Shown in pieces: positions 4,919 through 16,952 of a stretch of 64,000 nt of DNA (its first letter is position 1; each line of letters starts with the position of its first letter). Location: positions 960,001-1,024,000 of the forward strand of contig CAWCNY010000002.1 of the NCBI GenBank assembly GCA_963797095.1. The letters run 5' to 3'. The stretch comes from an uncultured Chloroflexia bacterium (GTDB taxonomy: Bacteria > Chloroflexota > Chloroflexia > QHBQ01 > JADMIH01). Position numbers and translations under genes: made by a program. The notes beneath the pieces were generated by a model that did no database searches, was not told the DNA's origin, and was given only the letters and a program-made list of their open reading frames with translations.

Positions 4919-5062
4919 GAGCCAGTTTTTTCTAGTAGACGGCAAGAGGCATCGCGGAAGCGGTGAATTCGCGCACCTGCATGATAGCAAGTTGACCAGC
5001 CAAGGTTATAGATCTCGAAAAGACCTACATTCGTGCTCAGATGTTTATTACAAACAAAGAAG

Positions 5063-5104
5063 AAGCCCTACCAAAACGGTAGAGCTTTTGGGCGGAAGTG
5101 ACGG
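5063..5104 (-). repeat. att-like copy of the tRNA-Asp 3' end plus a degenerate copy of its downstream hairpin
   Basis: aagccctaccaaaacggtagagcttttgggcggaagtgacgg vs aagctctaccaaaaggtagagcttttcggcggaagcgacgg at 14544-14584. Confidence 0.8.
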
Positions 5105-5233
5105 AGATTGCACCGTCACTTACGATCTTTCCAGCCTCAAGTTGCATCAGCAGCAAGAAATCGTTGAACCTATTCTACTCTTGCCTCATCCGAAAAGTCA
5201 AGGTCGGTATGCTGTACGGGTGCGCGCCATCGT

Positions 5234-6740
5234 TTAGGCGACTTTTCTGAGAGGGCGAGTTTTGGGCCAGCATTGCTCCCACCTCTCACTGAGCAGTTCG
5301 GCTCTCAGTGTCAGCACCCCTTGTGCTCCTGGTTTGCTCCAACACATGCCTGCTCCCTTGAGACGGGCACCAATCAGCCGCTTGCATGCACTCTCCACCG
5401 TGCCTGAACCAACTGGGAAGCCCAATGCCCGGTACTCGGAGTAGCGCATCCTCTCTTTGTTCGTCTGAAAGTAATAAATCTGCTCTCGTGCCGCTTCTCC
5501 CGCCTCCCCTTCACGTTTGCTCTCTCTGTGTAGAGCCACAATGACTGCTTCTACCCTTCCCTCCCATAATTCCTTCTCCCAACGCTTCACCCATCTTGCG
5601 GCGTCTGGTGTGCCCTGCCCGAAGATACCATTACCTGCTTGCCACAGGTGCTCCATGGCGTGATACCAGTCGAGTACCTCTACCCTGTTGGCAAAGTGCT
5701 CATCGAACTGTATCCAGTTGGTGGGTGCCCCATCTCCCAGACATACAACCTGCTCCTCAGGGCCTATCCCTCTCCTCCATGCTTCAGCACTCAACCGCTT
5801 TCCTGCCCGCTCCATCGAGCCGACCTCCGCCACATAGCTCTGATGGGTGGCTCTTGCCCCCTCTATCTCTCCTGCTTCGTTGTATGCAGGCTCGGCCCAA
5901 AACACCACTCCCGCTTTAGCGTCATGCCACCCATCTTCGTAGCGCACCTTGCCAGCGTCCAGCGTCGCCGCCCATGTGCCCAAGCCCAATGCTCCATCTG
6001 CAACCTTTGAACCTTTCTGAGAGGTGGGACTTGCCCCTAGCGTTTGATCTTCTGCTTGCAAGCTCTCCTCTCCTCTTGCAAGCTCTCCTCTCCTCTTGCA
6101 AGCTCTCCTCTCCTCTTGCAAGCTCTCCTCTCCTCTTGCAAGCTCTCCTCTCCTCTTGCAAGCTCTCCTCTTGCAAGCTCTCCTCTAATGTAAGCCCCCT
6201 CTGTTCAGTCATGCGCTCGGCTTCTCTTGGAGAGACCGACATGCCAGTGAGTACCTCCACTGCATGTGCAGCCTGCTCGAAAGGCATCTGCACACCCAGC
6301 AGGCACACTCCTTGTTGCACTCCGTCCGAGAAGTGTTCCCGTGCGGGTATGCCTAGAGCCTCATCCAGCGGGTAGCGTCCGGTGCCACACCCTTTACAGT
6401 AGAAGTAACCTCTCTCCAATGTGACCGTGCCTACCCATGTTTGCACAGTGCGCCGCTGCTTACCCTTGTACTGGGGTGTCTGCCCGCAGTCACACTGCTT
6501 GTGCCCAAGCAGCCATTCTTCCTCTATCATGGCACGATGCAGTTGGGCTGCGGCTTCTAAGGCTGAGGCGAAACAGTCCGAGCGCAGTTGACGTGCTCTT
6601 TCTTCGAGACTGCTCAAAGTAGCATCCGGGTTGCGTTGAGCATATATCCAAAGTTGTTTGACGAGCCCCTCAAATTCCTTCACAATACTAGTGAGGGCAG
6701 GTGACAGGTCGCAAACGGCCTGAAACTCGCTACTCTGCAT
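5234..6740 (-). pseudogene. DDE transposase, frameshifted within an internal tandem repeat
   Basis: N-terminal part has a CxC..YFYCxxC Zn finger; C-terminal part has DGA..W, DWYHAMEHL, GSGTVESACK, R.KGAGM.W. The two frames meet across the repeat at 6056-6185. Confidence 0.85.
6056..6185 (-). repeat. Tandem repeat: 2x15 bp (GAGGAGAGCTTGCAA) + 5x20 bp (GAGGA + the 15-mer)
   Basis: Counted directly; 130 bp total. Confidence 0.92.
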
Positions 6741-7038
6741 GATACCCTCCAGGATTTCGGCCTTAGCCGGGATGTCTTCACCTAGAGGGTATCATTTTTC
6801 TTTCCTTCCTAAAAGATGGCGCGCACCCATGCTGTACCACTTACCCAAATACCTAAAGAGCAATGGGAAGACGCGGTCCAGCGCCATAGGAAAGGCGAGA
6901 GCTTGCGGCAACCGGCAAAGGAATATGGAGTTTCACACGAAGCTATTCGGCAAGTTCTGATGCGATATGGCAGTCACGAGTTGTAAGGCTTCCCTGGGTA
7001 TCAGGAATACGTCCATTTGAGGATAAAGGTATAGGCCG

Positions 7039-9861
7039 TTAATTCAGCATCTTGTCTGGCTGAGTACGCACAATCACTGCATAAGCTACAGCGGCTTCCA
7101 TGGACATTGCCAACCCCGCTCGCCATGCCCGATCCCACGCGGCCTCGTCTAGCTGTGCCCTGGCGCTTGCCAGATGCCTGTCCCGCTCAATCTGCTCTGC
7201 TGGCCACATGTAAGCCCCTATTGCCGAGCGCAATCCTTCGGAAGCTCCAAAGAGGCGTGCCGCTCGCGTTGGATCGCCTTGCGCGCCCGCCAACGCCGCG
7301 AACCCGGTCAGGCACTCGGAGATGCCCTGTTTGTTGCCGATCTCTTGATGGAGCGTCAGGCTCTCCTTGAATAATGCCCCTGCTTTTGGGTAATCCCCTT
7401 TAGCAAGTGCTACATAGCCCAGGTTGTGTAGCACACCCGGGATATCGCTCGTCCCCCCTTGATCCTGGAACAAAAGCAGACTTTCCTCATAGAATGAGCC
7501 TGCTCGCGGGTAATTGCCCTCGATACGCGCTATATCGGCCAGCAAGGCGGACGCCTGAGCCATCCCGTAAGGATCTCCCACTTCTCTGGACAGCGCCCTA
7601 CATTCCTCCCAAGTGGACCTGGCTACTGAGTAATCTCCATGCATGAAAGACAACATTCCCGACGACATCAGCCCAAGTACCAGCCCTGGCTTGCCTTCGT
7701 CTCCTAGCTGGCGGAACAGTTTCACCCCTTCTGAATTTATCGTGCGTCCTTCCTGGTCTCCTCCAAACGCCATAGTGACTCCCAAACTAGAACGTGCATA
7801 TGCCAACCCTAGCTTATCTCCCAACTCTCGTGAGATAGCTGTGCTTTCCTCAAGCAGAACCTGCCCCGCCGAGGGGTCGCCCTGCAAAAAGGTCATGTAG
7901 CCTGCGGCGTACAAGGCCCTTGCTCGTAATTGGGTAGGCTCCGGCACACCCGGCAATAGCGCCTCCATCCACCGCCGCCCTTCACTCAGGTGGCCTCGCA
8001 TCTGCCAGAAAAGATGGAGCGCGGTGGCGATGCCCAAACCTACCTCTTTATCACCTACGCTGCTGAGGCTCCATTGGAGGGCTGCCCGCATATTGTCGTG
8101 TTCGGTCTCCAGCCTTTGCGCGGCTTCCTTCTGCCTTAGGGTCTGAATAAGCGGTGCGCATTCTTCGGCCACCTGCAGAAAGTAGTAAGCATGTGCTCGT
8201 CGCATGATGCTTATCTCGCCCCGCTCTTCCAGGCGCTCCAGCGCGTACTCGCGTATTGTCTCCAGCATCATAAAGCGAGATTCAACATGTGTGCCATCAA
8301 CCTGGCGTAGCAGGCTCTTATCATTAAGTGAGGCTACTCCGTCGAATATATTCATTTCGAAGGGGGCCAGTTCGTCCGGCGTAGAACCAGTATGGGTGGG
8401 CAACGAACGGCCTGCAGCAACAGCCTCAGCCGCCTCGAAAGTGCAACCGCCCATGAAAACGCCCATTCGGCGAAATAAGGTGCGTTCGTCGGACGATAAC
8501 AGATCGTAGCTCCAACCGATCGCGCATCGCAATGTCTGCTGACGAGCAGGCAGGTCACGCCCTCCACCAGTCAACACTTTCAGGCTGCTCTCCAACCTGG
8601 ATAGGATAGCCTGTGGAGTAAGGAGCTTAACTCGGGCCGCCGCCAACTCGATTGCCAGCGGCAGCCCATCAAGACGAACACAGATCTCGGCTATTATCGG
8701 GGCATTTTCGTTCGTCAGATCGAAGTCCGGTTTTACATCTCTGGCGCGCTCGATGAACAGGCGAACACTTTCAAAATCGGTCAGGTTCTCCAACGTGGGA
8801 GAATGGCGTAGGTCTGGCAGTTGCAAAGGAGGTGCCGGGAACTCTTTCTCACCGTATATATGGAGCACCTCGCGGCTCGTGACTAGCACCTTCAATTGAG
8901 AAGCGTCAGACAATAGTTCGCTCACTACCTGCCCCGCGCTGGACACCTGCTCGAAGTTGTCCAATAAGAGCAATAGCTCTTTCTGACCCAGATAGGCTTT
9001 CAAGCTTTCTATGATAGGCCGATTCCCATCTCCCATGAGGCCAAGTGTCTTAGCAATAGCTACCGGCACGAGGGCGGGATCGGTCAAAGCAGCTAGGGGC
9101 ACAAAGAAGACCCCATCACGAAAGCGGTCGAGCAACATTTCGCCCACTTGAAGTGAGAGGCGAGTCTTACCCGTGCCACCTGGGCCTGTGAGGGTTACAA
9201 GACGCACTTGCGGTCTGGCAAGTATCTCCTGCGTTAGCTCGACTTCCTTCTTCCTACCAATGAAGTCGGTTCGCTGAACCGGCAGATTGTTTGGGCGTGT
9301 ATCCAGCGTCTTGATGGGAGGGAAATCAGAAGGCAGATCGTCAACAACCATCTGGAAGACATGTTCCGGACGTTGCAAGTCCTTCAACTTGTGATCTCCC
9401 AGGTCGCGCAATCCGACCCCCTCCGGCAGATTATCGAAAACCAACTGATAGGTCGCACCAGTAAGCAAGATCTGTCCCCCATACCCGACAGCGAGCAAGC
9501 GCGCTATGCGATTCAGATGTGGTCTAACGTAATCACCTTCCCTTACCTCACCGGGACCGGTATGCAAAGCCATTCTCACCTTGATTGGAGCTACGCGGGG
9601 GTCCCATCTCTCTTGATGCAAAGCGCGCTGCGCGGCGAGCACCGCGCCCAGGGCCTGGGGCGCTAATACGAAGCAAGCGCAGAACGCATCGCCCATCCTT
9701 CTGAAGACTACGCCTCTGAATGCTTCGATGGCTTCCTGCAGTATGGCATCATGTCTCTCGACGGCCGCCTTCATGGCGCCCGGATGCTGCTCCCAGCGCA
9801 CGGTGCTGCTCTCGATATCAGTGTACAGGAACGTCAGAGTTCCAGTTGGTAGTTGCAACAT
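7039..9861 (-). CDS. Class III nucleotidyl cyclase domain + STAND/NB-ARC ATPase + TPR protein
   Basis: TFLYTDIESST, MGDAF, RMALHTG; GPGGTGKT, LLLLDNFE, LDGLPLAIELAAARV; C-terminal TPRs. Confidence 0.9.
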   Translation of the reverse strand: MLQLPTGTLTFLYTDIESSTVRWEQHPGAMKAAVERHDAILQEAIEAFRGVVFRRMGDAFCACFVLAPQALGAVLAAQRALHQERWDPRVAPIKVRMALHTGPGEVREGDYVRPHLNRIARLLAVGYGGQILLTGATYQLVFDNLPEGVGLRDLGDHKLKDLQRPEHVFQMVVDDLPSDFPPIKTLDTRPNNLPVQRTDFIGRKKEVELTQEILARPQVRLVTLTGPGGTGKTRLSLQVGEMLLDRFRDGVFFVPLAALTDPALVPVAIAKTLGLMGDGNRPIIESLKAYLGQKELLLLLDNFEQVSSAGQVVSELLSDASQLKVLVTSREVLHIYGEKEFPAPPLQLPDLRHSPTLENLTDFESVRLFIERARDVKPDFDLTNENAPIIAEICVRLDGLPLAIELAAARVKLLTPQAILSRLESSLKVLTGGGRDLPARQQTLRCAIGWSYDLLSSDERTLFRRMGVFMGGCTFEAAEAVAAGRSLPTHTGSTPDELAPFEMNIFDGVASLNDKSLLRQVDGTHVESRFMMLETIREYALERLEERGEISIMRRAHAYYFLQVAEECAPLIQTLRQKEAAQRLETEHDNMRAALQWSLSSVGDKEVGLGIATALHLFWQMRGHLSEGRRWMEALLPGVPEPTQLRARALYAAGYMTFLQGDPSAGQVLLEESTAISRELGDKLGLAYARSSLGVTMAFGGDQEGRTINSEGVKLFRQLGDEGKPGLVLGLMSSGMLSFMHGDYSVARSTWEECRALSREVGDPYGMAQASALLADIARIEGNYPRAGSFYEESLLLFQDQGGTSDIPGVLHNLGYVALAKGDYPKAGALFKESLTLHQEIGNKQGISECLTGFAALAGAQGDPTRAARLFGASEGLRSAIGAYMWPAEQIERDRHLASARAQLDEAAWDRAWRAGLAMSMEAAVAYAVIVRTQPDKMLN

Positions 9862-9936
9862 GGTGAACGCATAATAGCAAAAACGTCCGACTTTGGCACG
9901 GGTACAAACAGGTGTTCCCCTACCCTCTTCAGAATA

Positions 9937-9970
9937 CAAGTAAGCCAGTGGCATACCACTGGCTTACTTG
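9937..9970. terminator. Perfect 15-bp hairpin next to the second att copy
   Basis: CAAGTAAGCCAGTGG-CATA-CCACTGGCTTACTTG. Confidence 0.65.
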
Positions 9971-9978
9971 ACATAACT

Positions 9979-10236
9979 TGCGGAAGCGACGGGGATTGCA
10001 CCGTCAATTACGACTTTTCGTCTCTAAACCTGCACGAGCGACAAGAAATCCTTGATCCTATCTTATTCTCACCACGCAAGAAAAGTCAAGGTCGGTATTC
10101 CATGCCCCTCACACACATTCCGGAGGAGCAATGGGAAGAAGTGGCTCAACGCCACGTGAACGGCGAGAGCCTGCGCCTGTTAGCGAAGAGCTACGGAGTC
10201 TCGCATGAAGCTGTGCGGCAGGTTGTCAAGAGATAA
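9979..10236 (+). pseudogene. Headless HTH-domain ORF starting at the att site (copy 2)
   Basis: CGSDGDCTVNYDFSSL...SQGRYSMPLTHIPEEQWEEVAQRHVNGESLRLLAKSYGVSHEAVRQVVKR*; HTH signature GxSLRxLAxxYGVSxxxVRQ. A short HTH from the internal ATG may still be expressed. Confidence 0.7.
9980..9993 (-). repeat. att-like 14-bp direct repeat of the tRNA-Asp 3' end
   Basis: GCGGAAGCGACGGG is identical to 14572-14585. Confidence 0.8.
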
Positions 10237-10298
10237 CTCCACTATTGAGGAGTAGTGAGACTTAGGAACGTCGATAATTCTGAAATAGTCCGGAAAAT

Positions 10299-10335
10299 AG
10301 CCAGTCCTGACAGAGATAGTTCCTCAGGACTGGCT
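10299..10335 (-). terminator. 12-bp stem-loop after the cupin gene
   Basis: AGCCAGTCCTGA...TCAGGACTGGCT, followed by a T-tract on the minus strand. Confidence 0.55.
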
Positions 10336-10366
10336 GGGTTAGAGTACGGTGAGCATACCTCTTCTC

Positions 10367-10837
10367 TCAATCAGGGCTTAGGGGCGGTCCAAGCAGGGAC
10401 ATATCATGTCTATCGAAAACCGCTGCAACGTCCTTCGGGTCGGGCTTGCCGTTGCGCGTAAGAGGCCCAAGCTCTTCGTAAAACCTGTGTCCACCGCCCG
10501 GTGTGTACACCACGATGATCTCGGCTGTCTCATCGGTCAAGTTTACAAAGGCATGCGGCACCTTTGATGGAAGGTATGCAAAGCCTCCTTCGTTGAGGTG
10601 GAAGATGTCGTCACCGATTCGAACCTTGAACCGGCCTTTCAGCACATGAATGGTCTCCTCCTGTATATGGTGAACATGTAATGGAGGTCCGTTTTTCGGT
10701 GCCACCTGGACTACAAAATAGTCCAATGCTCCGCCGGTATCGTCGCCGGTAACCTTGAAAATGAGATCTCTGCCCGGACCCGATTGGAGGATCAAACCCT
10801 CAGCTTCGGCAAGGACCTTGTATCCAGTCGTTATCAT
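10367..10837 (-). CDS. Cupin domain protein (quercetin dioxygenase-like)
   Basis: AAGGAG RBS; GPPLHVH...EETIHVLKG, P..VPHAF.N motifs. Confidence 0.85.
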   Translation of the reverse strand: MITTGYKVLAEAEGLILQSGPGRDLIFKVTGDDTGGALDYFVVQVAPKNGPPLHVHHIQEETIHVLKGRFKVRIGDDIFHLNEGGFAYLPSKVPHAFVNLTDETAEIIVVYTPGGGHRFYEELGPLTRNGKPDPKDVAAVFDRHDMSLLGPPLSPD

Positions 10838-11051
10838 CTTCAACTCCTTATTGAAACCGGTTATTTTCTTCATAGCGGTCACCGGTCTTTCCAATTCCGG
10901 TCGCGCTTACTGTTCTGACTATACTGGGTCGTCCTCCCGCAAATCTCCCAAAAACCTCTCAAACCATCTCTCAGGCCTCAGGTCGGTTTGCTTTGGGCAG
11001 AATTGGGCGTATAATTCAGCTAAAGAAGCGCGTTGCTACAAGAAGGCCAAC

Positions 11052-14000
11052 ATGCTCAAGATCTACCTGCTAGGCGATTTCTCAGTACACCGCGACGGCA
11101 TCCCCATACCCGCCGCCGACTGGGCGCGCCGTAAAACCAGGTCGCTTCTCAAGCTGCTGGCGCTCCAGCCAGGACACCGGCTGCACCGAGAGCAGGTCAC
11201 CGAATTGCTGTGGCCCGACCTCGATCCGATTGCTGCTCGCGACAACTTCTATCGAAACCTTTCGTTCCTCCGCCATACGCTAGAACCTGAGCTCGAGCGC
11301 CCGGCTGATTCCCACTTTGTGAATCTGCAGGCGGAGATAGTAAAGCTTGGCCCACCGGATGAGGTTTGGATAGACGTGGACGCCTTCGAGAGCCTTATCG
11401 CTCAGGCCCGTACTACGGGGCAGCCGCTCCCGTTGCTTGAGGAAGCGCTGAGTCTCTATACGGGCGATCTTCTGTCGGAAGACACCTATGAAGAATGGAC
11501 TATCTCGCGTAGGGATCTCCTATCGAGGGCAGCGATCAAGGCATTGTTGCAGATAGCCGAAGCGCGGCGGGAAGAGGTGGCCTATGAACCGGCTATCGCC
11601 GCCCTGCAGCGCGTTCTCTCTCTGGATCGCACCGACGAGCAGGCCCACCGTGAACTGATGCGCACGTTTGCGCTCTCCGGACGCCGCCAGGATGCACTGC
11701 GCCAGTACGAGCAGTGCTGTAAGGTGCTGCAATCAGAACTGAACGTGGAGCCTGAGGCGGAAACCACCGGCCTGTATGATAGCATCGCAAGGGGCGATAT
11801 GGGCAGACGCTTCACCCCTGCGGTGCCTGGTGTGCCAGCCGGGCATGCAGCTGCTCGGCCACAACTCCCCGGGACGACTGAGTCTTTGAATAATCTGCCG
11901 GACATTGGCACGCCCTTGATAGGACGCGAACGTGAGGTAGCAGAAGCATGCCGCCATCTGCGCCGCCGCGAGGTGAGACTGCTCACGATGACCGGCACGG
12001 CGGGCATCGGAAAGACCCGCCTCGCTGTTGAAGTAGCGCACGCCCTGATCGAGGACTTTCGGGATGGTACGCTCTTTGTGCCCCTGGCCCATGCCCAGGA
12101 CGCCATTCAAGTGTTCCCGGCCATCGCGCAGGCACTTGGGCTGAAAGAGGACGGGGACCGCCCTTTGCCGGAGAGCCTTCAGGCTTTCCTGCGCCATCGA
12201 CAACTTCTGATTGTGCTGGACAACTTCGAGCATGTGATCCAGGCGGCCTCCGCTCTCGCCCAGGTCCTGTCCGCTTGCCCCGGCCTCAAGTTGCTCGTTA
12301 CCAGCCGGGAACTGCTACGCCTCACGCTGGAGCACGATTTTCCGGTTCAACCCCTGTCGTTGCCGGACCTGAACCACCTTCCGCCGCCACAGGACCTGGG
12401 CGACTATACATCTATTTGCCTGTTCTTAACCAGAGCCGCCGCTGTGAAGCCTGGGTTTGCACTCACATCTGATAATGCTGTGGCTGTGGCCGAGATTTGC
12501 AGCCGGTTGGACGGGCTACCTCTCGCTATCGAGCTTGCCGCGGCGCGGGTGCGTCTCCTAGCGCCCCAAGCCCTGCTGGCGCGGCTGAGCAACCGCCTGC
12601 GCCTGCTCACCGGCGGGGCCCGCGATCTGCCCGAGCGCCAGCAGACCATCTACAAGGCTATCGATTGGAGTTACGGTCTCTTGAGCACAAGGGAAAAGTC
12701 GATTTTTGCTCGCTTGTCGGTGTTTGTCGAGGGGTGCACGGAGGAGGCTGCTGCTGCGGTCTGCTACGACCTGGAGAGCGTAGGCGACCTTGGTGCCCTG
12801 GACGACCTCTCGCTGCTTGTAGATAAGAGCCTCCTGCGGTCGGAATCGGAGATCCAGAAACCGGGGGCTGTCGGGGCGGGAACCGGATCACTCGCAAACG
12901 GATACCCTGAGTCGCGGTTCAAAATGCTCGAGACGATCCGCGAATACGCTTCGGAGAGACTGACCGAGAGCGGAGAGTTGGCCGGAACGCAGGCGCGCCA
13001 CGCCCGATATTACCTGTCGATCGCCGAGGCGGGCGAAGATAACTGGTTCACTGCCGAGCAGCACTACTGGCTGGAGAGGTTTGATCAAGAGCAGTACAAC
13101 TTCCAGGCAGCACTGGTCTGGGCGATCCGGAGCGACCTAGAGGTGGCGATCAGGTTTGGCGGCGCGCTCTGGCACTACTGGCTGGCGCATGGGTACCTCA
13201 CGGAGGGGAGGCGATGGCTTGAACAGGCCATAGCGGAGGTGCCGAGATCAGAAGATGCAGCGCTCGGTCCAGACAGGGCCGGGCGCGCGAAAGCGTTATT
13301 CGGGGCGGGTGTGCTGGCGACTCACCAGGCGGATTATGCCCGCGCCGGCGAGTTGATCGCCCAATCGCTCGGCGTCGCCCGCTCGATCGGCGATGACTTA
13401 CAGATAGCCAATTCCCTCGCCGGGCTTGGGATTAGCATGTACTACCGGGGCGAGTACGATCGCTCGATGTTGCAGTTCGAGGAGGCACTGCAAATCTTCA
13501 GGCGGCTAGGGCACACACGTGGCACGGCCCTGGCGCTGAATAGTCTGAGCGACGCGATCCTATGCCTGGGGGACAGTACGCGCGCTTCGACCCTGGCCGG
13601 GGAGAGCCTGAATCTGTCGCTAGGCATTGGGGACAGTTTCTCCGTGGCTGCCTCGCTAGCCAACCAGGGCCGGGCGCTCCTGCAGCAAGGGGACATAGAG
13701 AAAGCCCTAGCTCTCTTTGAGGAGAGCCTGGCAATTCGGGTCAAGCTGAAGGACAAGGGGGGCATGGCCCACACTCTCAATCTCCTTGGAAACGCGGCCC
13801 TCGCTCGCGGGGACATCACTGGGGCGTCAGGCTTCTACACCCAGAGTCTCACGCTGCGGCATGAACTGGGCGACAGAGAGGGCATGGCAGCCCCATTGGA
13901 GGGGCTGGCTGCCGTAGCGGAAAGGCTTGACTACGTTGAAAGAGCCGCCCGGCTCTACGGCGCTGCCGAGGCGCTACGGGAGGCGATCGGTGCGCCCATT

Positions 14001-14144
14001 CCGCCCACGGACTTCGGACTGCATAGTCGAGCTATTTCCTCGCTGAAGTCACGTTCGGAAGGAGATGCCATAGCCGCAGAATGGAGGATGGGGCGGGCTC
14101 TGCAGATAGAGGACGCAGTATCTTACGCCCTCTCTGAGGGCTGA
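11052..14144 (+). CDS. AfsR/SARP-type regulator: wHTH + BTAD + NB-ARC + TPR
   Basis: KIYLLGDF, LLWPD, DVDAFE, LYTGDLL, EQAHRELM; GTAGIGKT; LDNFE; LDGLPLAIELAAARV; TPRs. Confidence 0.92.
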   Translation: MLKIYLLGDFSVHRDGIPIPAADWARRKTRSLLKLLALQPGHRLHREQVTELLWPDLDPIAARDNFYRNLSFLRHTLEPELERPADSHFVNLQAEIVKLGPPDEVWIDVDAFESLIAQARTTGQPLPLLEEALSLYTGDLLSEDTYEEWTISRRDLLSRAAIKALLQIAEARREEVAYEPAIAALQRVLSLDRTDEQAHRELMRTFALSGRRQDALRQYEQCCKVLQSELNVEPEAETTGLYDSIARGDMGRRFTPAVPGVPAGHAAARPQLPGTTESLNNLPDIGTPLIGREREVAEACRHLRRREVRLLTMTGTAGIGKTRLAVEVAHALIEDFRDGTLFVPLAHAQDAIQVFPAIAQALGLKEDGDRPLPESLQAFLRHRQLLIVLDNFEHVIQAASALAQVLSACPGLKLLVTSRELLRLTLEHDFPVQPLSLPDLNHLPPPQDLGDYTSICLFLTRAAAVKPGFALTSDNAVAVAEICSRLDGLPLAIELAAARVRLLAPQALLARLSNRLRLLTGGARDLPERQQTIYKAIDWSYGLLSTREKSIFARLSVFVEGCTEEAAAAVCYDLESVGDLGALDDLSLLVDKSLLRSESEIQKPGAVGAGTGSLANGYPESRFKMLETIREYASERLTESGELAGTQARHARYYLSIAEAGEDNWFTAEQHYWLERFDQEQYNFQAALVWAIRSDLEVAIRFGGALWHYWLAHGYLTEGRRWLEQAIAEVPRSEDAALGPDRAGRAKALFGAGVLATHQADYARAGELIAQSLGVARSIGDDLQIANSLAGLGISMYYRGEYDRSMLQFEEALQIFRRLGHTRGTALALNSLSDAILCLGDSTRASTLAGESLNLSLGIGDSFSVAASLANQGRALLQQGDIEKALALFEESLAIRVKLKDKGGMAHTLNLLGNAALARGDITGASGFYTQSLTLRHELGDREGMAAPLEGLAAVAERLDYVERAARLYGAAEALREAIGAPIPPTDFGLHSRAISSLKSRSEGDAIAAEWRMGRALQIEDAVSYALSEG

Positions 14145-14541
14145 ATGCTATCCCCGCATGATTGTGGTGCGAGAGATTGAATACCCATGTGTGCACAAAA
14201 GCGCGTGCAGAAGTCTTTAGAGAGGAACCGGAACGCAACAACGAGAATAAGAGAATGCAGGCGCGAACAATCGAGCAGCAAAATAGATGGGCTTCCTCCG
14301 CTATTATACCAAGTTCGAGACTTTTGGCACTCACATTTGCAGTCCGATATACCCAACGTTTTTGAGACAGATCGCAATATGCAGCTTGCTATTAACCGGT
14401 AACCGGTGCCAGCCGTGCATGTCTCGTCAATAGTCGCGGAAGCGAAAAGATGACGAACCGACGATTACGACCTCTGCAAGGTCGCACTTTATCCACCAAT
14501 TACAGCCAAATTCGTGCGTGAGTTGCACTTGCAAATGTGAA

Positions 14542-14569
14542 AAAAGCTCTACCAAAAGGTAGAGCTTTT
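14542..14569 (-). terminator. Intrinsic terminator of tRNA-Asp
   Basis: AAAAGCTCTACC-AAAA-GGTAGAGCTTTT perfect hairpin. Confidence 0.8.
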
Positions 14570-14572
14570 CGG

Positions 14573-14646
14573 CGGAAGCGACGGGATTCGAACCCGCGGT
14601 CTCGGCCTTGACAGGGCCGCATGTTAGGCCACTACACCACGCCTCC
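14573..14646 (-). tRNA. tRNA-Asp(GTC); CCA not encoded (followed by CCG)
   Basis: GGAGGCG/CGCTTCC-G acceptor stem, CTGTCAA anticodon loop, GGTTCGAATCC T-arm. Confidence 0.97.
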
Positions 14647-14816: not shown

Positions 14817-15752
14817 CTACCTGTGATGTAGTGTGCCCTGCCCCTGCCCGCGCACCCACGGTACCAACAGCAGCGCCCCGGCAACGATCAGGAACACGGG
14901 CCATATCTGCCCTATCAAGCTGTTGTTGATCAACACCACCGGCAGAAAAACCAACCCTATCACTCCGAATATAGCCGCAGGCACCAGGTAGCCTCTCTGC
15001 GTGCCGTTCGATAGCAGGTACGCGGCCAACGCACCCACTCCCACGATCAACGGGTAGATCGGCCACAACCTCCCCTGGTCCTCCCACGAGATGACGCCAA
15101 GCGTGGTCGCCAGGAAGAACACCCCCACCAGGAATGGGATGGAACCGGCAAGCACCAGGCCGCTCCGCACGCGCAGGTCGCCTACCAGCGCAGCTACAAC
15201 CAGCAGAGCCAGGCCCACTGCCATCGGATATACAGGCCACCACGTGCGCGCCCATTCACCCCCGAACCATGTGTCTATCCCGTACCGCTGCCACCAATCC
15301 CAATCGTACAGGATGCCTGACAACGTGGCTACCAGGAAGCTCACACCCAGCAGCACAAACAGCACGCCAACTACCAGCAGGCCGTTCCGTTGCAAACCCG
15401 AGGCAACATAGCTAACCAGCGCTGCCGCGCCCAGGATCAGCAAATAGAACGGCCACAATCGCTCCTGGTCTGACCACGATGCCAGCCCAAGCGTGAATAC
15501 GAAGAAGAAGGCTCCAAGCAGCAACGTGAAACTGCCAACCAGCACCGCCCATCCTCTCCGAATCTGCCCCACATCTCGCGTAATCAACACTTGCGCCATC
15601 GGGGCCAACCCCACGATCATCACGAATGCCGGCCAGATATTACCCCAGTTAAGCCCTCCGATTTCCATGGTTGCAGCCAGGAAAACCATGCCGAACAAAA
15701 TCAGGAACAGTGCGGCCTGCACAGTTCCACTACGCAAATTTCGTGTTTCCAT
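14817..15752 (-). CDS. Polytopic membrane protein with internally repeated LiaI/LiaF-like TM hairpins
   Basis: Repeated W.DQ.RLWP / WP..L..G motifs; two homologous halves. Confidence 0.7.
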   Translation of the reverse strand: METRNLRSGTVQAALFLILFGMVFLAATMEIGGLNWGNIWPAFVMIVGLAPMAQVLITRDVGQIRRGWAVLVGSFTLLLGAFFFVFTLGLASWSDQERLWPFYLLILGAAALVSYVASGLQRNGLLVVGVLFVLLGVSFLVATLSGILYDWDWWQRYGIDTWFGGEWARTWWPVYPMAVGLALLVVAALVGDLRVRSGLVLAGSIPFLVGVFFLATTLGVISWEDQGRLWPIYPLIVGVGALAAYLLSNGTQRGYLVPAAIFGVIGLVFLPVVLINNSLIGQIWPVFLIVAGALLLVPWVRGQGQGTLHHR

Positions 15753-16223: not shown

Positions 16224-16952
16224 TTATATGTATAGCTTAGGGCATATCCAGGCCGCATCCATTGATACGTCAACAGGTAACGAAAGGTTCAATGGACAAA
16301 TCTCGCACACCGGCCTCGGCTTGCAAATCCGCTTAGCATGCAGCACGATCAGCGCGTGATACTCGTTGAACAATCCCGCATCGTGCGGCAGGTTATCCAT
16401 AAACACTCTCTGCACATCATGGTACGAAGCATTGGGCCGCACCAATCCCCACCTTATACAAAGTCGCAGTGCATAGGCGTCCGCCACAAATACCGCCCGC
16501 CCCAGCGCATACAACAGAATCGCGTCTGCCGTCTCAGGCCCGATCCCTTTCAGGGCAAGCAATTTCCCCCTCAACTCCTCCACTCCATCGCCCGAAGCCG
16601 CCAGGGCCTCCGGCCCCCCATTCTCCACCACAAAACCGGCCAGCGTGCGAATCCGCTCCGGCTTCTGGGTGTAAAACCCCGCCGTGCGCACAGCCGCCGT
16701 TACTTCCTCCAGGGGCGCATCTATCAGTACCTCAGGCCGCCTTAACCCATCCGCCCCCCACCTCGTCTCAATATTGCCCAGAGCCACTTCAACGTTCCTC
16801 CACGACGTGTGCTGGGTAAGGATCGCCCCCAGCATGATCTCCCATGCGCTCCCGGTGCGCGTAGGCCACCAGCTTTGCGACCCGTAATAGGCCAGCAAAG
16901 CGTCATGGATTGACATTAGTAGACGATGTAGATAAGGATCTGCTTCAGACAT
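16224..16952 (-). CDS. Endonuclease III-like HhH-GPD DNA glycosylase
   Basis: GAILTQHTSW.NV, LKGIGPETADAILLYA, VADAY, EYHALIV, C-terminal Cys cluster. Confidence 0.88.
   Translation of the reverse strand: MSEADPYLHRLLMSIHDALLAYYGSQSWWPTRTGSAWEIMLGAILTQHTSWRNVEVALGNIETRWGADGLRRPEVLIDAPLEEVTAAVRTAGFYTQKPERIRTLAGFVVENGGPEALAASGDGVEELRGKLLALKGIGPETADAILLYALGRAVFVADAYALRLCIRWGLVRPNASYHDVQRVFMDNLPHDAGLFNEYHALIVLHAKRICKPRPVCEICPLNLSLPVDVSMDAAWICPKLYI

Follow-up and report, generated by a model that had tools for sequence, protein, structure and literature searches.

The 10 kb beside the tRNA-Asp gene of an uncultured Chloroflexia bacterium (genome G000, a 6.0-Mb assembly) very probably form a fossil array of junctions left by mobile elements that use a large serine recombinase (LSR) to target the 3' end of tRNA-Asp and that carry their attachment site, attP, inside the LSR gene itself. 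The window, the whole stretch of DNA analysed here, comprises 64,000 nucleotides (contig C2:960001-1024000) and supplies the coordinates used below; genomes, loci and proteins compared with it have handles beginning with G, L and P. Each junction is of the tail side and reads flank, core, tail, the core being a copy of the tRNA 3' end and the tail a headless open frame made up of a linker and a helix-turn-helix (HTH) domain. The recombinase gene of these elements is split at the core, the tails are coding in nature and the linkage of tail to core is strict. The array is unable to move by itself and is either fossil or dependent on functions supplied in trans. A recombinase gene that is cut in two at each insertion is an arrangement hardly described in bacteria.

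The uncut gene was found on a metagenome contig, L062, where, in a six-frame profile scan of the loci, one tail proved to close an open frame of 581 codons. The frame holds an uninterrupted LSR of 561 aa with Resolvase (9.5e-40), Recombinase and Zn_ribbon_recom domains (Pfam). Beyond the point at which LSRs usually end, the protein runs on through ...SRGSDGERR..., whose coding sequence GGAAGCGACGGGG is the tRNA core, and then through the linker into the family HTH; there is no tRNA on the contig. The cut falls beyond the zinc-ribbon and coiled-coil region, near residue 505 of the 561, and since all canonical LSR domains precede it, the truncated enzyme may, judging from its domain content, still be active. 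The cut form is found in relatives. With the L062 protein as query against 61 related genomes, we recovered LSR heads with the same three domains as open frames of 544 (G053), 553 (G002) and 556 aa (G020), to which the L062 head is 47-49% identical over ~490 residues, and damaged heads at tRNA-Asp in G011 (truncated) and G021 (with an in-frame TAG). The heads run straight into antisense tRNA-Asp and end ...(K/I/Y)(C/Y)GSDGIRTRGLxLDRxAC before a stop (...GSDRIRTGDLVLDRDAC in G020), an antisense tail of 14 residues (13 in G053).

The tRNA-Asp of the window, read in the tail frame, encodes GSDGIRTRGLGLDRAAC followed by a stop, so that the alternative tail proposed earlier from the intact tRNA exists as the real end of LSRs in relatives. 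The core codon register, GGA-AGC-GAC-GGG, is common to the integrated heads and to both tails of the window, so that a crossover inside the core would restore an unbroken gene. The original prediction, made from the window alone, had placed attP inside a gene, probably that of the recombinase, in which insertion exchanges an HTH for a tRNA-antisense tail, and had expected both recombinases ending at tRNA-Asp and a full-length recombinase-HTH fusion; the former are found in full length in G053, G002 and G020, the latter is L062, whose core is in frame as GSDG and whose end matches the tail profile, and together they support the proposal. Three genomes used here, G021, G022 and G016, are unpublished and account for 3 of the 24 flanks compared below; no conclusion depends on them.

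Two tails are present in the window: tail A, which is intact, and tail B, which is divided by an insertion sequence (IS) across whose insertion site its frame resumes in phase (Table 1). The frame beginning GSDG is open from each core and spans 84 codons, much as the paralogous headless frames of ~85 aa had been foreseen; the further claim that both end in an HTH is right for tail A and wrong for tail B as it stands, its HTH half lying beyond the IS. The two tails are 72% identical in nucleotides and share 58 of 84 amino acids, their differences fall 18/13/40 on codon positions 1/2/3 (10/6/16 in codons 1-41 alone), and the other two frames are interrupted by stops. The third-position excess, together with the closure of the other frames, is a clear indication that the tail frame is, or recently was, protein-coding from the att core onwards. 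Upstream, the in-frame sequences of tails A and B are mutually unrelated, and across the family the upstream sequences are unrelated or fall into few junction classes, with heterogeneous N-terminal extensions assigned by gene callers.

The linker of ~42 aa is predicted to be disordered and contains the motif LHExQEIxDP, invariant or nearly so in the alignment. AlphaFold, run on tail A with the family alignment, gave predicted local distance difference test (pLDDT) values of 53-60 for residues 1-40 and of 81-93 for residues 41-84, which are modelled as a three-helix HTH. Pfam detects a weak Sigma70_r4/HTH_38 likeness; in the PDB the best sequence match had an E of 0.04 and a fold search gave no match at E<=0.001, the resemblance being that of a generic three-helix HTH (IstA, Tc3, Hin, KorA, Mor). 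Promoter-like sites (TTGACT, 18 nt, TAGAAT or TAAGAT) occur on the minus strand at 5201-5172 and 10089-10060, homologous spots in the two tails, and face the core. These may be genuine promoters, directed outward or antisense, or may simply follow from the conservation of the KSQGRY codons.

Of the 24 other genomes of the genus, 13 carry tails, against none of 16 more distant genomes of the same draw; tails also occur in 17 loci of a species-level genome collection (titled Chloroflexia, with a few Thermomicrobiales and Dehalococcoidia) and in 37 metagenome loci. Within the genus they always adjoin tRNA-Asp or a core, often several to a locus: G007 has three within 4 kb, followed by the tRNA, and G012 at least five remnants over 43 kb. 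The N-terminal part is kept by 22 of 52 distinct tail matches, and 20 of these 22 have a core no more than 150 nt upstream; in the two exceptions the core was lost to a contig end or carries three changes. The HTH frames are thus not independent of tRNA fragments. The arms that follow the core are of two types, type 1, which reads GSDG(D)CTVTYDFS as in the window, and type 2, which keeps more of the tRNA T-arm and reads RKRRGSNPHDR.

In the protein databases, a profile search of 1.84 billion representatives gave 1779 matches at E<=1e-3, and small tails dominate among the best 150 of these. When ten of those matches (181-719 aa) were examined with Pfam, eight proved to be tandem HTH repeat proteins, not recombinases; the other two, P0051 and P0062, have no Pfam match and are continuous LSR-end/core/tail fragments. 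P0055, P0061, P0084 and others carry 5-13 tandem copies of an HTH unit closely related to that of the tail in proteins of 300-1557 aa, which Pfam sees as stacks of HTH families. A viral origin was considered and dropped, the 150 pattern matches of a tail-alignment scan of IMG/VR yielding none that was confirmed. At L053:9693-10090, in a Dehalococcoidia metagenome-assembled genome, a decayed LSR C-terminus is followed by a different tRNA-like T-arm, read GDPDRIRS, and then by an HTH of the same family, which suggests sister families on other tRNA targets.

The recurrence of the tRNA-Asp 3' end reported in the original prediction at 9980-9993 and ~5091-5104 is confirmed, with the core of copy B now placed at 5092-5104 (12/13). 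Over the whole genome the 13-mer GCGGAAGCGACGG is exact only at 9980-9992 and 14572-14584, and the 15 other one-mismatch matches lack any flanking similarity. That the repeats are a local duplication of the tRNA 3' end, or chance matches accompanied by spurious open reading frames (ORFs), has virtually no probability left. A 95-nt tRNA-like object that ARAGORN reports at 5089-5183, 'tRNA-Gln(ctg)', speaks for duplication, but Rfam rejects it, with no match even at E<=1, and it consists of an att fragment and a hairpin-like element arm. The reading is refuted by the coding signature of the tails, the uniqueness of the exact core, the recurrence of the same junctions in many genomes and metagenomes, relatives among them, and the LSR heads at tRNA-Asp.

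Among 26 genomes of the genus, 25 have the tRNA-Asp gene as a single orthologous locus. A comparison of the tRNA-Asp loci of 20 genomes found the right-hand neighbour (window 16224-16952) kept in 16, so the locus is orthologous and all of its variation is 3' of the tRNA. Between the tRNA and this neighbour the window has a gene for a LiaF/LiaI-like membrane protein (14817-15752); tblastn found no match to it in 31 related loci, where the neighbour sits ~260-350 nt from the tRNA, and it looks like an insertion 5' of the tRNA in G000. A tyrosine integrase as general driver of the locus was rejected: PF00589 occurs just 5' of tRNA-Asp in G012 and nowhere at the locus in G000, G007 or G003. The G012 enzyme (362 aa, 142.7 bits; G012:C9, L031:14773-15861, minus strand), with a 181-aa ORF, is found in that genome only and presumably belongs to another element on the other side of the locus.

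In the explanation that we favour, attP lies ~55-85 codons before the stop of the LSR gene, and insertion splits the gene. The catalytic head (resolvase, recombinase and zinc-ribbon/coiled-coil parts) is put beside the tRNA and gains a short tRNA-antisense tail; the natural C-terminus, the flexible linker and HTH, is left at the opposite end of the element with no start codon of its own, and the cargo follows it. G000 has since lost the heads and backbones and retains tails A and B, two att remnants and three cargo genes, with a terminator hairpin ahead of each core. The swap would alter the recombinase, from a full-length, integration-competent form to a truncated form that is altered or inactive; it would be well placed to bias direction or expression, and only the circle could make the full-length form. 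That the cassettes are decayed or non-autonomous members, as had been proposed, agrees with what is preserved, tail-side junctions and cargo with no LSR in the window or in G000. As had also been noted, no integrase lies between the sites: Pfam found none among the nine large ORFs of 4950-14646, and none of the PF00589 and PF00239 matches of the genome falls within the window.

Backbones survive in relatives. Upstream of its integrated head, G020 has a ParA-like ATPase and a DnaD-like protein; L042 has a TraG-like coupling protein and two Replic_Relax proteins before the LSR, and a TIR protein and a type I restriction-modification system after the tail; the LSR of G053 (L111) has IS21-type transposition genes (IstB-like, Mu transposase C-terminal/rve) as neighbours. 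The elements look integrative, plasmid-like or conjugative, with cargo just behind the tail. L042:3907-18207 appears to be a complete relative in an attP-like configuration, with no tRNA within 10 kb and its tail one base out of frame at a run of G; decay, slippage or a mistake in the assembly could each account for this frameshift.

A hairpin made up of the final ~45 nt of the LSR gene lies directly against the core and, on the tRNA strand, occupies the position of a terminator. In the genus the tRNA-Asp flank folds into a hairpin in 23 of 24 flanks examined, the exception being G003 (0.0 kcal/mol), and in G008, G023, G019:C95 and G015 the hairpin flank is clearly what is left of a decayed LSR end. 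Profile comparison with the LSR C-terminus finds short coding remnants 32-93 nt from the tRNA in G015, G018, G007 and G003, and also directly left of tails in G002 and G012, which shows decay in place. Heads and backbones thus appear to erode while the terminal hairpin stays, presumably because the tRNA needs it as a transcript terminator.

The hairpins also admit an alternative in which the units of the window are non-autonomous cassettes of tail, cargo and terminator hairpin, inserted serially by an LSR acting in trans; the hairpin end being similar to the native flank of the tRNA, every insertion would restore a landing site, like attI in an integron. Every cassette does end in a hairpin exactly before a core, and cargo is shuffled between genomes. 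The hairpin module 9937-9979 recurs in G012 and G013 with different left neighbours and with both tail types, and a module of remnant core, ~110 nt and hairpin is found both next to the tRNA and next to a tail (window 4954-5090 and 14436-14570; G012; L054). However, LSR heads are found in graded decay beside the tRNA in G008, G023, G015, G018, G007 and G003, which explains hairpin-only ends with no special mechanism, and a circular cassette junction was not seen in the contigs of four public runs. Moreover, LSRs that use hybrid sites without a directionality factor are not known to us. We consider serial cassette insertion rather unlikely.

Several observations weigh against the split-gene explanation. 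Lineages differ in the frame that they use across the core (GSDG, RKRRGS or AEVTG), the protein being conserved from LHExQEI on. Besides L062, shorter continuous head-core-tail frames occur in L048, P0003, P0051 and P0062, which between them cross the core in all three possible frames; P0003, P0051 and P0062 are known from protein alone, without DNA. Of the eight cases in which head and tail are adjacent, three do not form one frame across a core: in L042/L056 and in L068 the two are out of frame by one base, and L074 has no recognisable tRNA-Asp core. Neither the window nor G000 contains an LSR of this family or a detectable remnant of its C-terminus, so that the window is tied to LSR elements by homology of tails and cores only. 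Canonical LSRs, to our knowledge, recombine attP with attB only, which leaves the stacking of several elements at one tRNA unaccounted for. Finally, the contigs of the four public runs contained no circle, empty-site or core joints (14572/9980, 9980/5092 or any core), which is evidence neither way. The best-matching public DNA run had 0.23 of the sampled window words, and no public RNA run was listed as matching.

The variable frame and the three of eight adjacent cases outside one frame would fit an HTH encoded by a small gene of its own, for a regulator or an excision factor, beside attP, into which the recombinase reads incidentally and without functional meaning. Source annotation points the same way in labelling some members 'Mor family transcriptional regulator' or sigma-like. 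A start codon is conserved nowhere in 34 aligned members, however, the column of the conserved Leu being mostly CTG, and the third-position bias is present already in codons 1-41, directly after the core. Five genes are continuous in frame, L062 being complete, and all homologues of at least 148 aa found in 5.8 billion proteins have as their head an LSR C-terminus or unrelated read-in sequence. We therefore judge an independent HTH gene distinctly improbable. A word-indexed protein search with the last 107 residues of L062 returned only the L062 protein itself, and word-based and exhaustive protein searches gave no further full-length fusions, an indication that integrated or decayed states dominate the databases.

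Candidate routes to the stacking of split-gene elements are the similarity between the LSR-hairpin arm and the native flank, the insertion of elements as multimers, and homologous recombination with an element already in place. A further reading, possible though we would not call it probable, is that the split is a built-in sensor of the state of the LSR, with isoforms that differ in direction, and that decayed elements and the terminator hairpin leave a reusable site at which cargo, often of a defence-like kind, piles up as in an integron. The full-length enzyme might, for example, integrate, and the truncated one excise or stay inert until a neighbouring element supplies a tail. The tail swap would then replace or supplement a separate directionality factor, and the 3' end of the LSR gene would double as the terminator hairpin of the tRNA.

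The features of the array are collected in Table 1. ARAGORN's tRNA-Asp is backed by the Rfam tRNA model (63.4 bits at 14573-14646) and has a good promoter-like site upstream at 14718-14690. As the original prediction stated, each copy of the core is followed by a hairpin on the tRNA strand. The copy B hairpin is near-identical to that of the live tRNA (5074-5104 and 14554-14584 are 90% identical), and the perfect hairpin before copy A recurs before cores in G012, G013 and metagenome proteins, with paired changes in its stem. Two decayed att copies are additional to the two reported originally. The signature at the end of the outer one is also found after intact type 2 cores in relatives, and the equivalent of the inner one lies ~135 nt from the tRNA in G012 and L054.

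Table 1. Positions of the tRNA-Asp gene, att cores, hairpins, tails, IS and cargo genes in the window
Feature	Position	Strand	Basis or comparison
Degenerate att fragment: core start, then type 2 arm remnant ending CATGATAG	4954-4989	+	Outermost array remnant
Terminator-like hairpin, downstream (tRNA strand) of att copy B	5063-5087	-	11-bp stem, then T-rich run
att core copy B	5092-5104	+	12/13 vs tRNA-Asp 3' end
Tail B, first half: codons 1-41, linker part	5094-5217	+	5092-5210 vs 9980-10098, 76% identical
IS (UPF0236/ISLre2-like transposase, PF06782), 1611 bp, in tail B	5218-6828	-	
Tail B, second half: HTH part and stop	6838-6986	+	6837-6967 vs 10105-10235, 70% identical
Cargo: 971-aa STAND NTPase (NB-ARC/AAA) with TPR repeats	7039-9954	-	Pfam
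Perfect hairpin, 15-bp arms, inner end of left cassette, before att copy A	9937-9970	.	
att core copy A, GCGGAAGCGACGG(G)	9980-9993	+	14/14 vs tRNA-Asp 3' end
Tail A: intact 84-codon frame, core to stop (10234-10236)	9982-10236	+	
Cargo: cupin-domain protein	10367-10894	-	Pfam; G013 orthologue 87% identical
Cargo: 1129-aa BTAD + NB-ARC + TPR regulator (SARP/AfsR-like architecture)	10755-14144	+	Pfam; G013 orthologue 73% identical
Degenerate att fragment: first 10 core bases, then decayed tail start (..ATTACGAC)	14436-14471	+	Repeat comparison
Terminator hairpin directly downstream of live tRNA-Asp	14545-14566	-	-19.9 kcal/mol over 50-nt flank
tRNA-Asp (GTC), attachment target, 3' end = core	14571-14646	-	ARAGORN

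The two large cargo proteins of the window are paralogues, and the 971-aa protein has relatives in the arrays of G012 and G013; PADLOC gave only generic TPR matches on the window cargo. In relatives the cargo varies by genome and includes an Imm5-like protein, a two-component pair, SIR2 (ThsA-like PADLOC matches), Ham1, a short-chain dehydrogenase/reductase (SDR), STAND/TPR regulators and a restriction-like protein, and no cassette examined contains an integrase. The G007 array (L029:7306-15473) carries an Imm5-like immunity protein, a histidine kinase/response regulator pair and a SIR2 protein (ThsA-like) beside a P-loop kinase-like protein, contents which indicate that the hotspot collects defence- or conflict-type genes. 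A contig of run X3, from a related soil organism, runs to 14162, after the 1129-aa gene, and then through 31 letters resembling the end of a tail ORF to 10242 onward; that relative has either its cassettes arranged differently or a copy in tandem, and the joint does not run from core to core.

The IS in tail B looks active. It has 21-nt inverted ends (5218-5238/6808-6828) and a 9-bp target duplication (5209-5217 and 6829-6837), and its transposase is broken into two frames around a 20-nt tandem repeat (6035-6191). About nine full-length and three partial copies are present in the genome, and contigs from other runs or samples terminate exactly at 5218 and 6828. A 19-nt insertion at 6179 in one contig of another run shows that the number of internal repeats varies.

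LSRs as a class recombine through 2-nt staggered cuts at a central dinucleotide, their direction being set by a directionality factor. They are major genome-engineering tools whose one-way behaviour normally needs a separate factor, and an enzyme found in nature that remodels its own C-terminus by the reaction it catalyses would be of practical as well as evolutionary interest. In G000 the 10 kb beside tRNA-Asp are a graveyard of such elements, which brought regulator-type cargo. What the window shares with LSR elements is the 13-14 nt core at 5092, 9980 and 14572 and the homologous arms after 5104 and 9993; the LSR with Resolvase, Recombinase and zinc-ribbon domains, present in L062, G002, G020, G053 and L042, is absent from the window and from G000, so the window holds remnants and not an element.

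Other systems resemble parts of this arrangement. The cis-mobilizable element (CIME) concept comes from the tyrosine-integrase integrative and conjugative elements (ICEs) of streptococci, and the units of the window are likewise flanked by att, without integration and transfer genes, and in tandem at a tRNA. In mycobacteriophage BPs, which has a tyrosine integrase, attP lies inside the repressor gene, and integration alters the C-terminus and the behaviour of the repressor; here too attP lies in a gene, but the gene that is cut is the recombinase itself. The likeness to an integron is one of layout: promoter-poor units are arrayed to one side of a fixed site, each with a hairpin end, and their cargo is varied, defence-like genes included. 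The array differs in having no IntI tyrosine recombinase, attI/attC or common promoter and no evidence of single-strand hairpin recombination, its repeats being tRNA 3' ends.

The SSV-type 'suicidal' integrases of archaea (Badel et al. 2020, PMC7253208; reviewed in PMC8371274) are alike in that, in the parts of these papers drawn on here, attP sits within the recombinase ORF and has its match in a tRNA gene, the recombinase gene is partitioned to opposite ends of the element, and elements accumulate and decay. Those enzymes are tyrosine recombinases (PF16795) of archaea, whereas the enzyme here is a serine recombinase (PF00239/PF07508/PF13408) of Chloroflexia; and partition as described there cuts an N-terminal part from the catalytic domain and inactivates both, whereas here only the C-terminal HTH is lost. 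Self-disrupting recombinases are described as exclusively archaeal in the passages of the 2021 review cited here (PMC8371274). In the literature searched, supplements aside, no other bacterial or serine-recombinase case of attP in its own gene was found beyond the archaeal papers and a study of Dehalococcoides (PMC3146451).

That study, also of Chloroflexota, comes closest. As far as the portions used here extend, McMurdie et al. (2011, PMC3146451) describe tandem islands downstream of ssrA, a tRNA-like gene, delimited by ssrA 3'-end repeats, a serine recombinase of ~540 aa, DsiB, and 15 islands without an integration module that are read as cis-mobilizable; the module consists of six genes (DsiB, DsiA, RecF-like, ParB, Mom and an RNA-polymerase-domain protein). 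The 3' end of dsiB always overlaps att, its stop lies in ssrA or in the next island and is therefore unclear, and the authors suggest that DsiB may be fully functional only on the circle or beside an island with 'the requisite 3' gene fragment' (PMC3146451). The tRNA-Asp elements share the phylum, tandem islands beside an RNA gene, a serine recombinase of ~540 aa and an LSR gene whose 3' end overlaps the att repeat, a likeness drawn from the description of DsiB and not from sequence comparison. They differ in target, tRNA-Asp and not ssrA (tmRNA), and in host, Chloroflexia. The DsiA/RecF/ParB/Mom module was not seen by the LSRs of G020, L042 and G053 (three contexts, two of them short), and the tail profile gave weak matches in 4 of 201 sampled Dehalococcoidia genomes. 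The overlap of att with the 3' end of a recombinase gene has thus been known since dsiB in 2011, the only bacterial hint that we found, and in the portions of that paper drawn on here no conserved 3' fragment is identified and the missing fragment stays hypothetical (PMC3146451). New here are the identification of that fragment as a conserved linker and HTH, coding, under purifying selection and strictly linked to att, and the sight of the intact fused gene.

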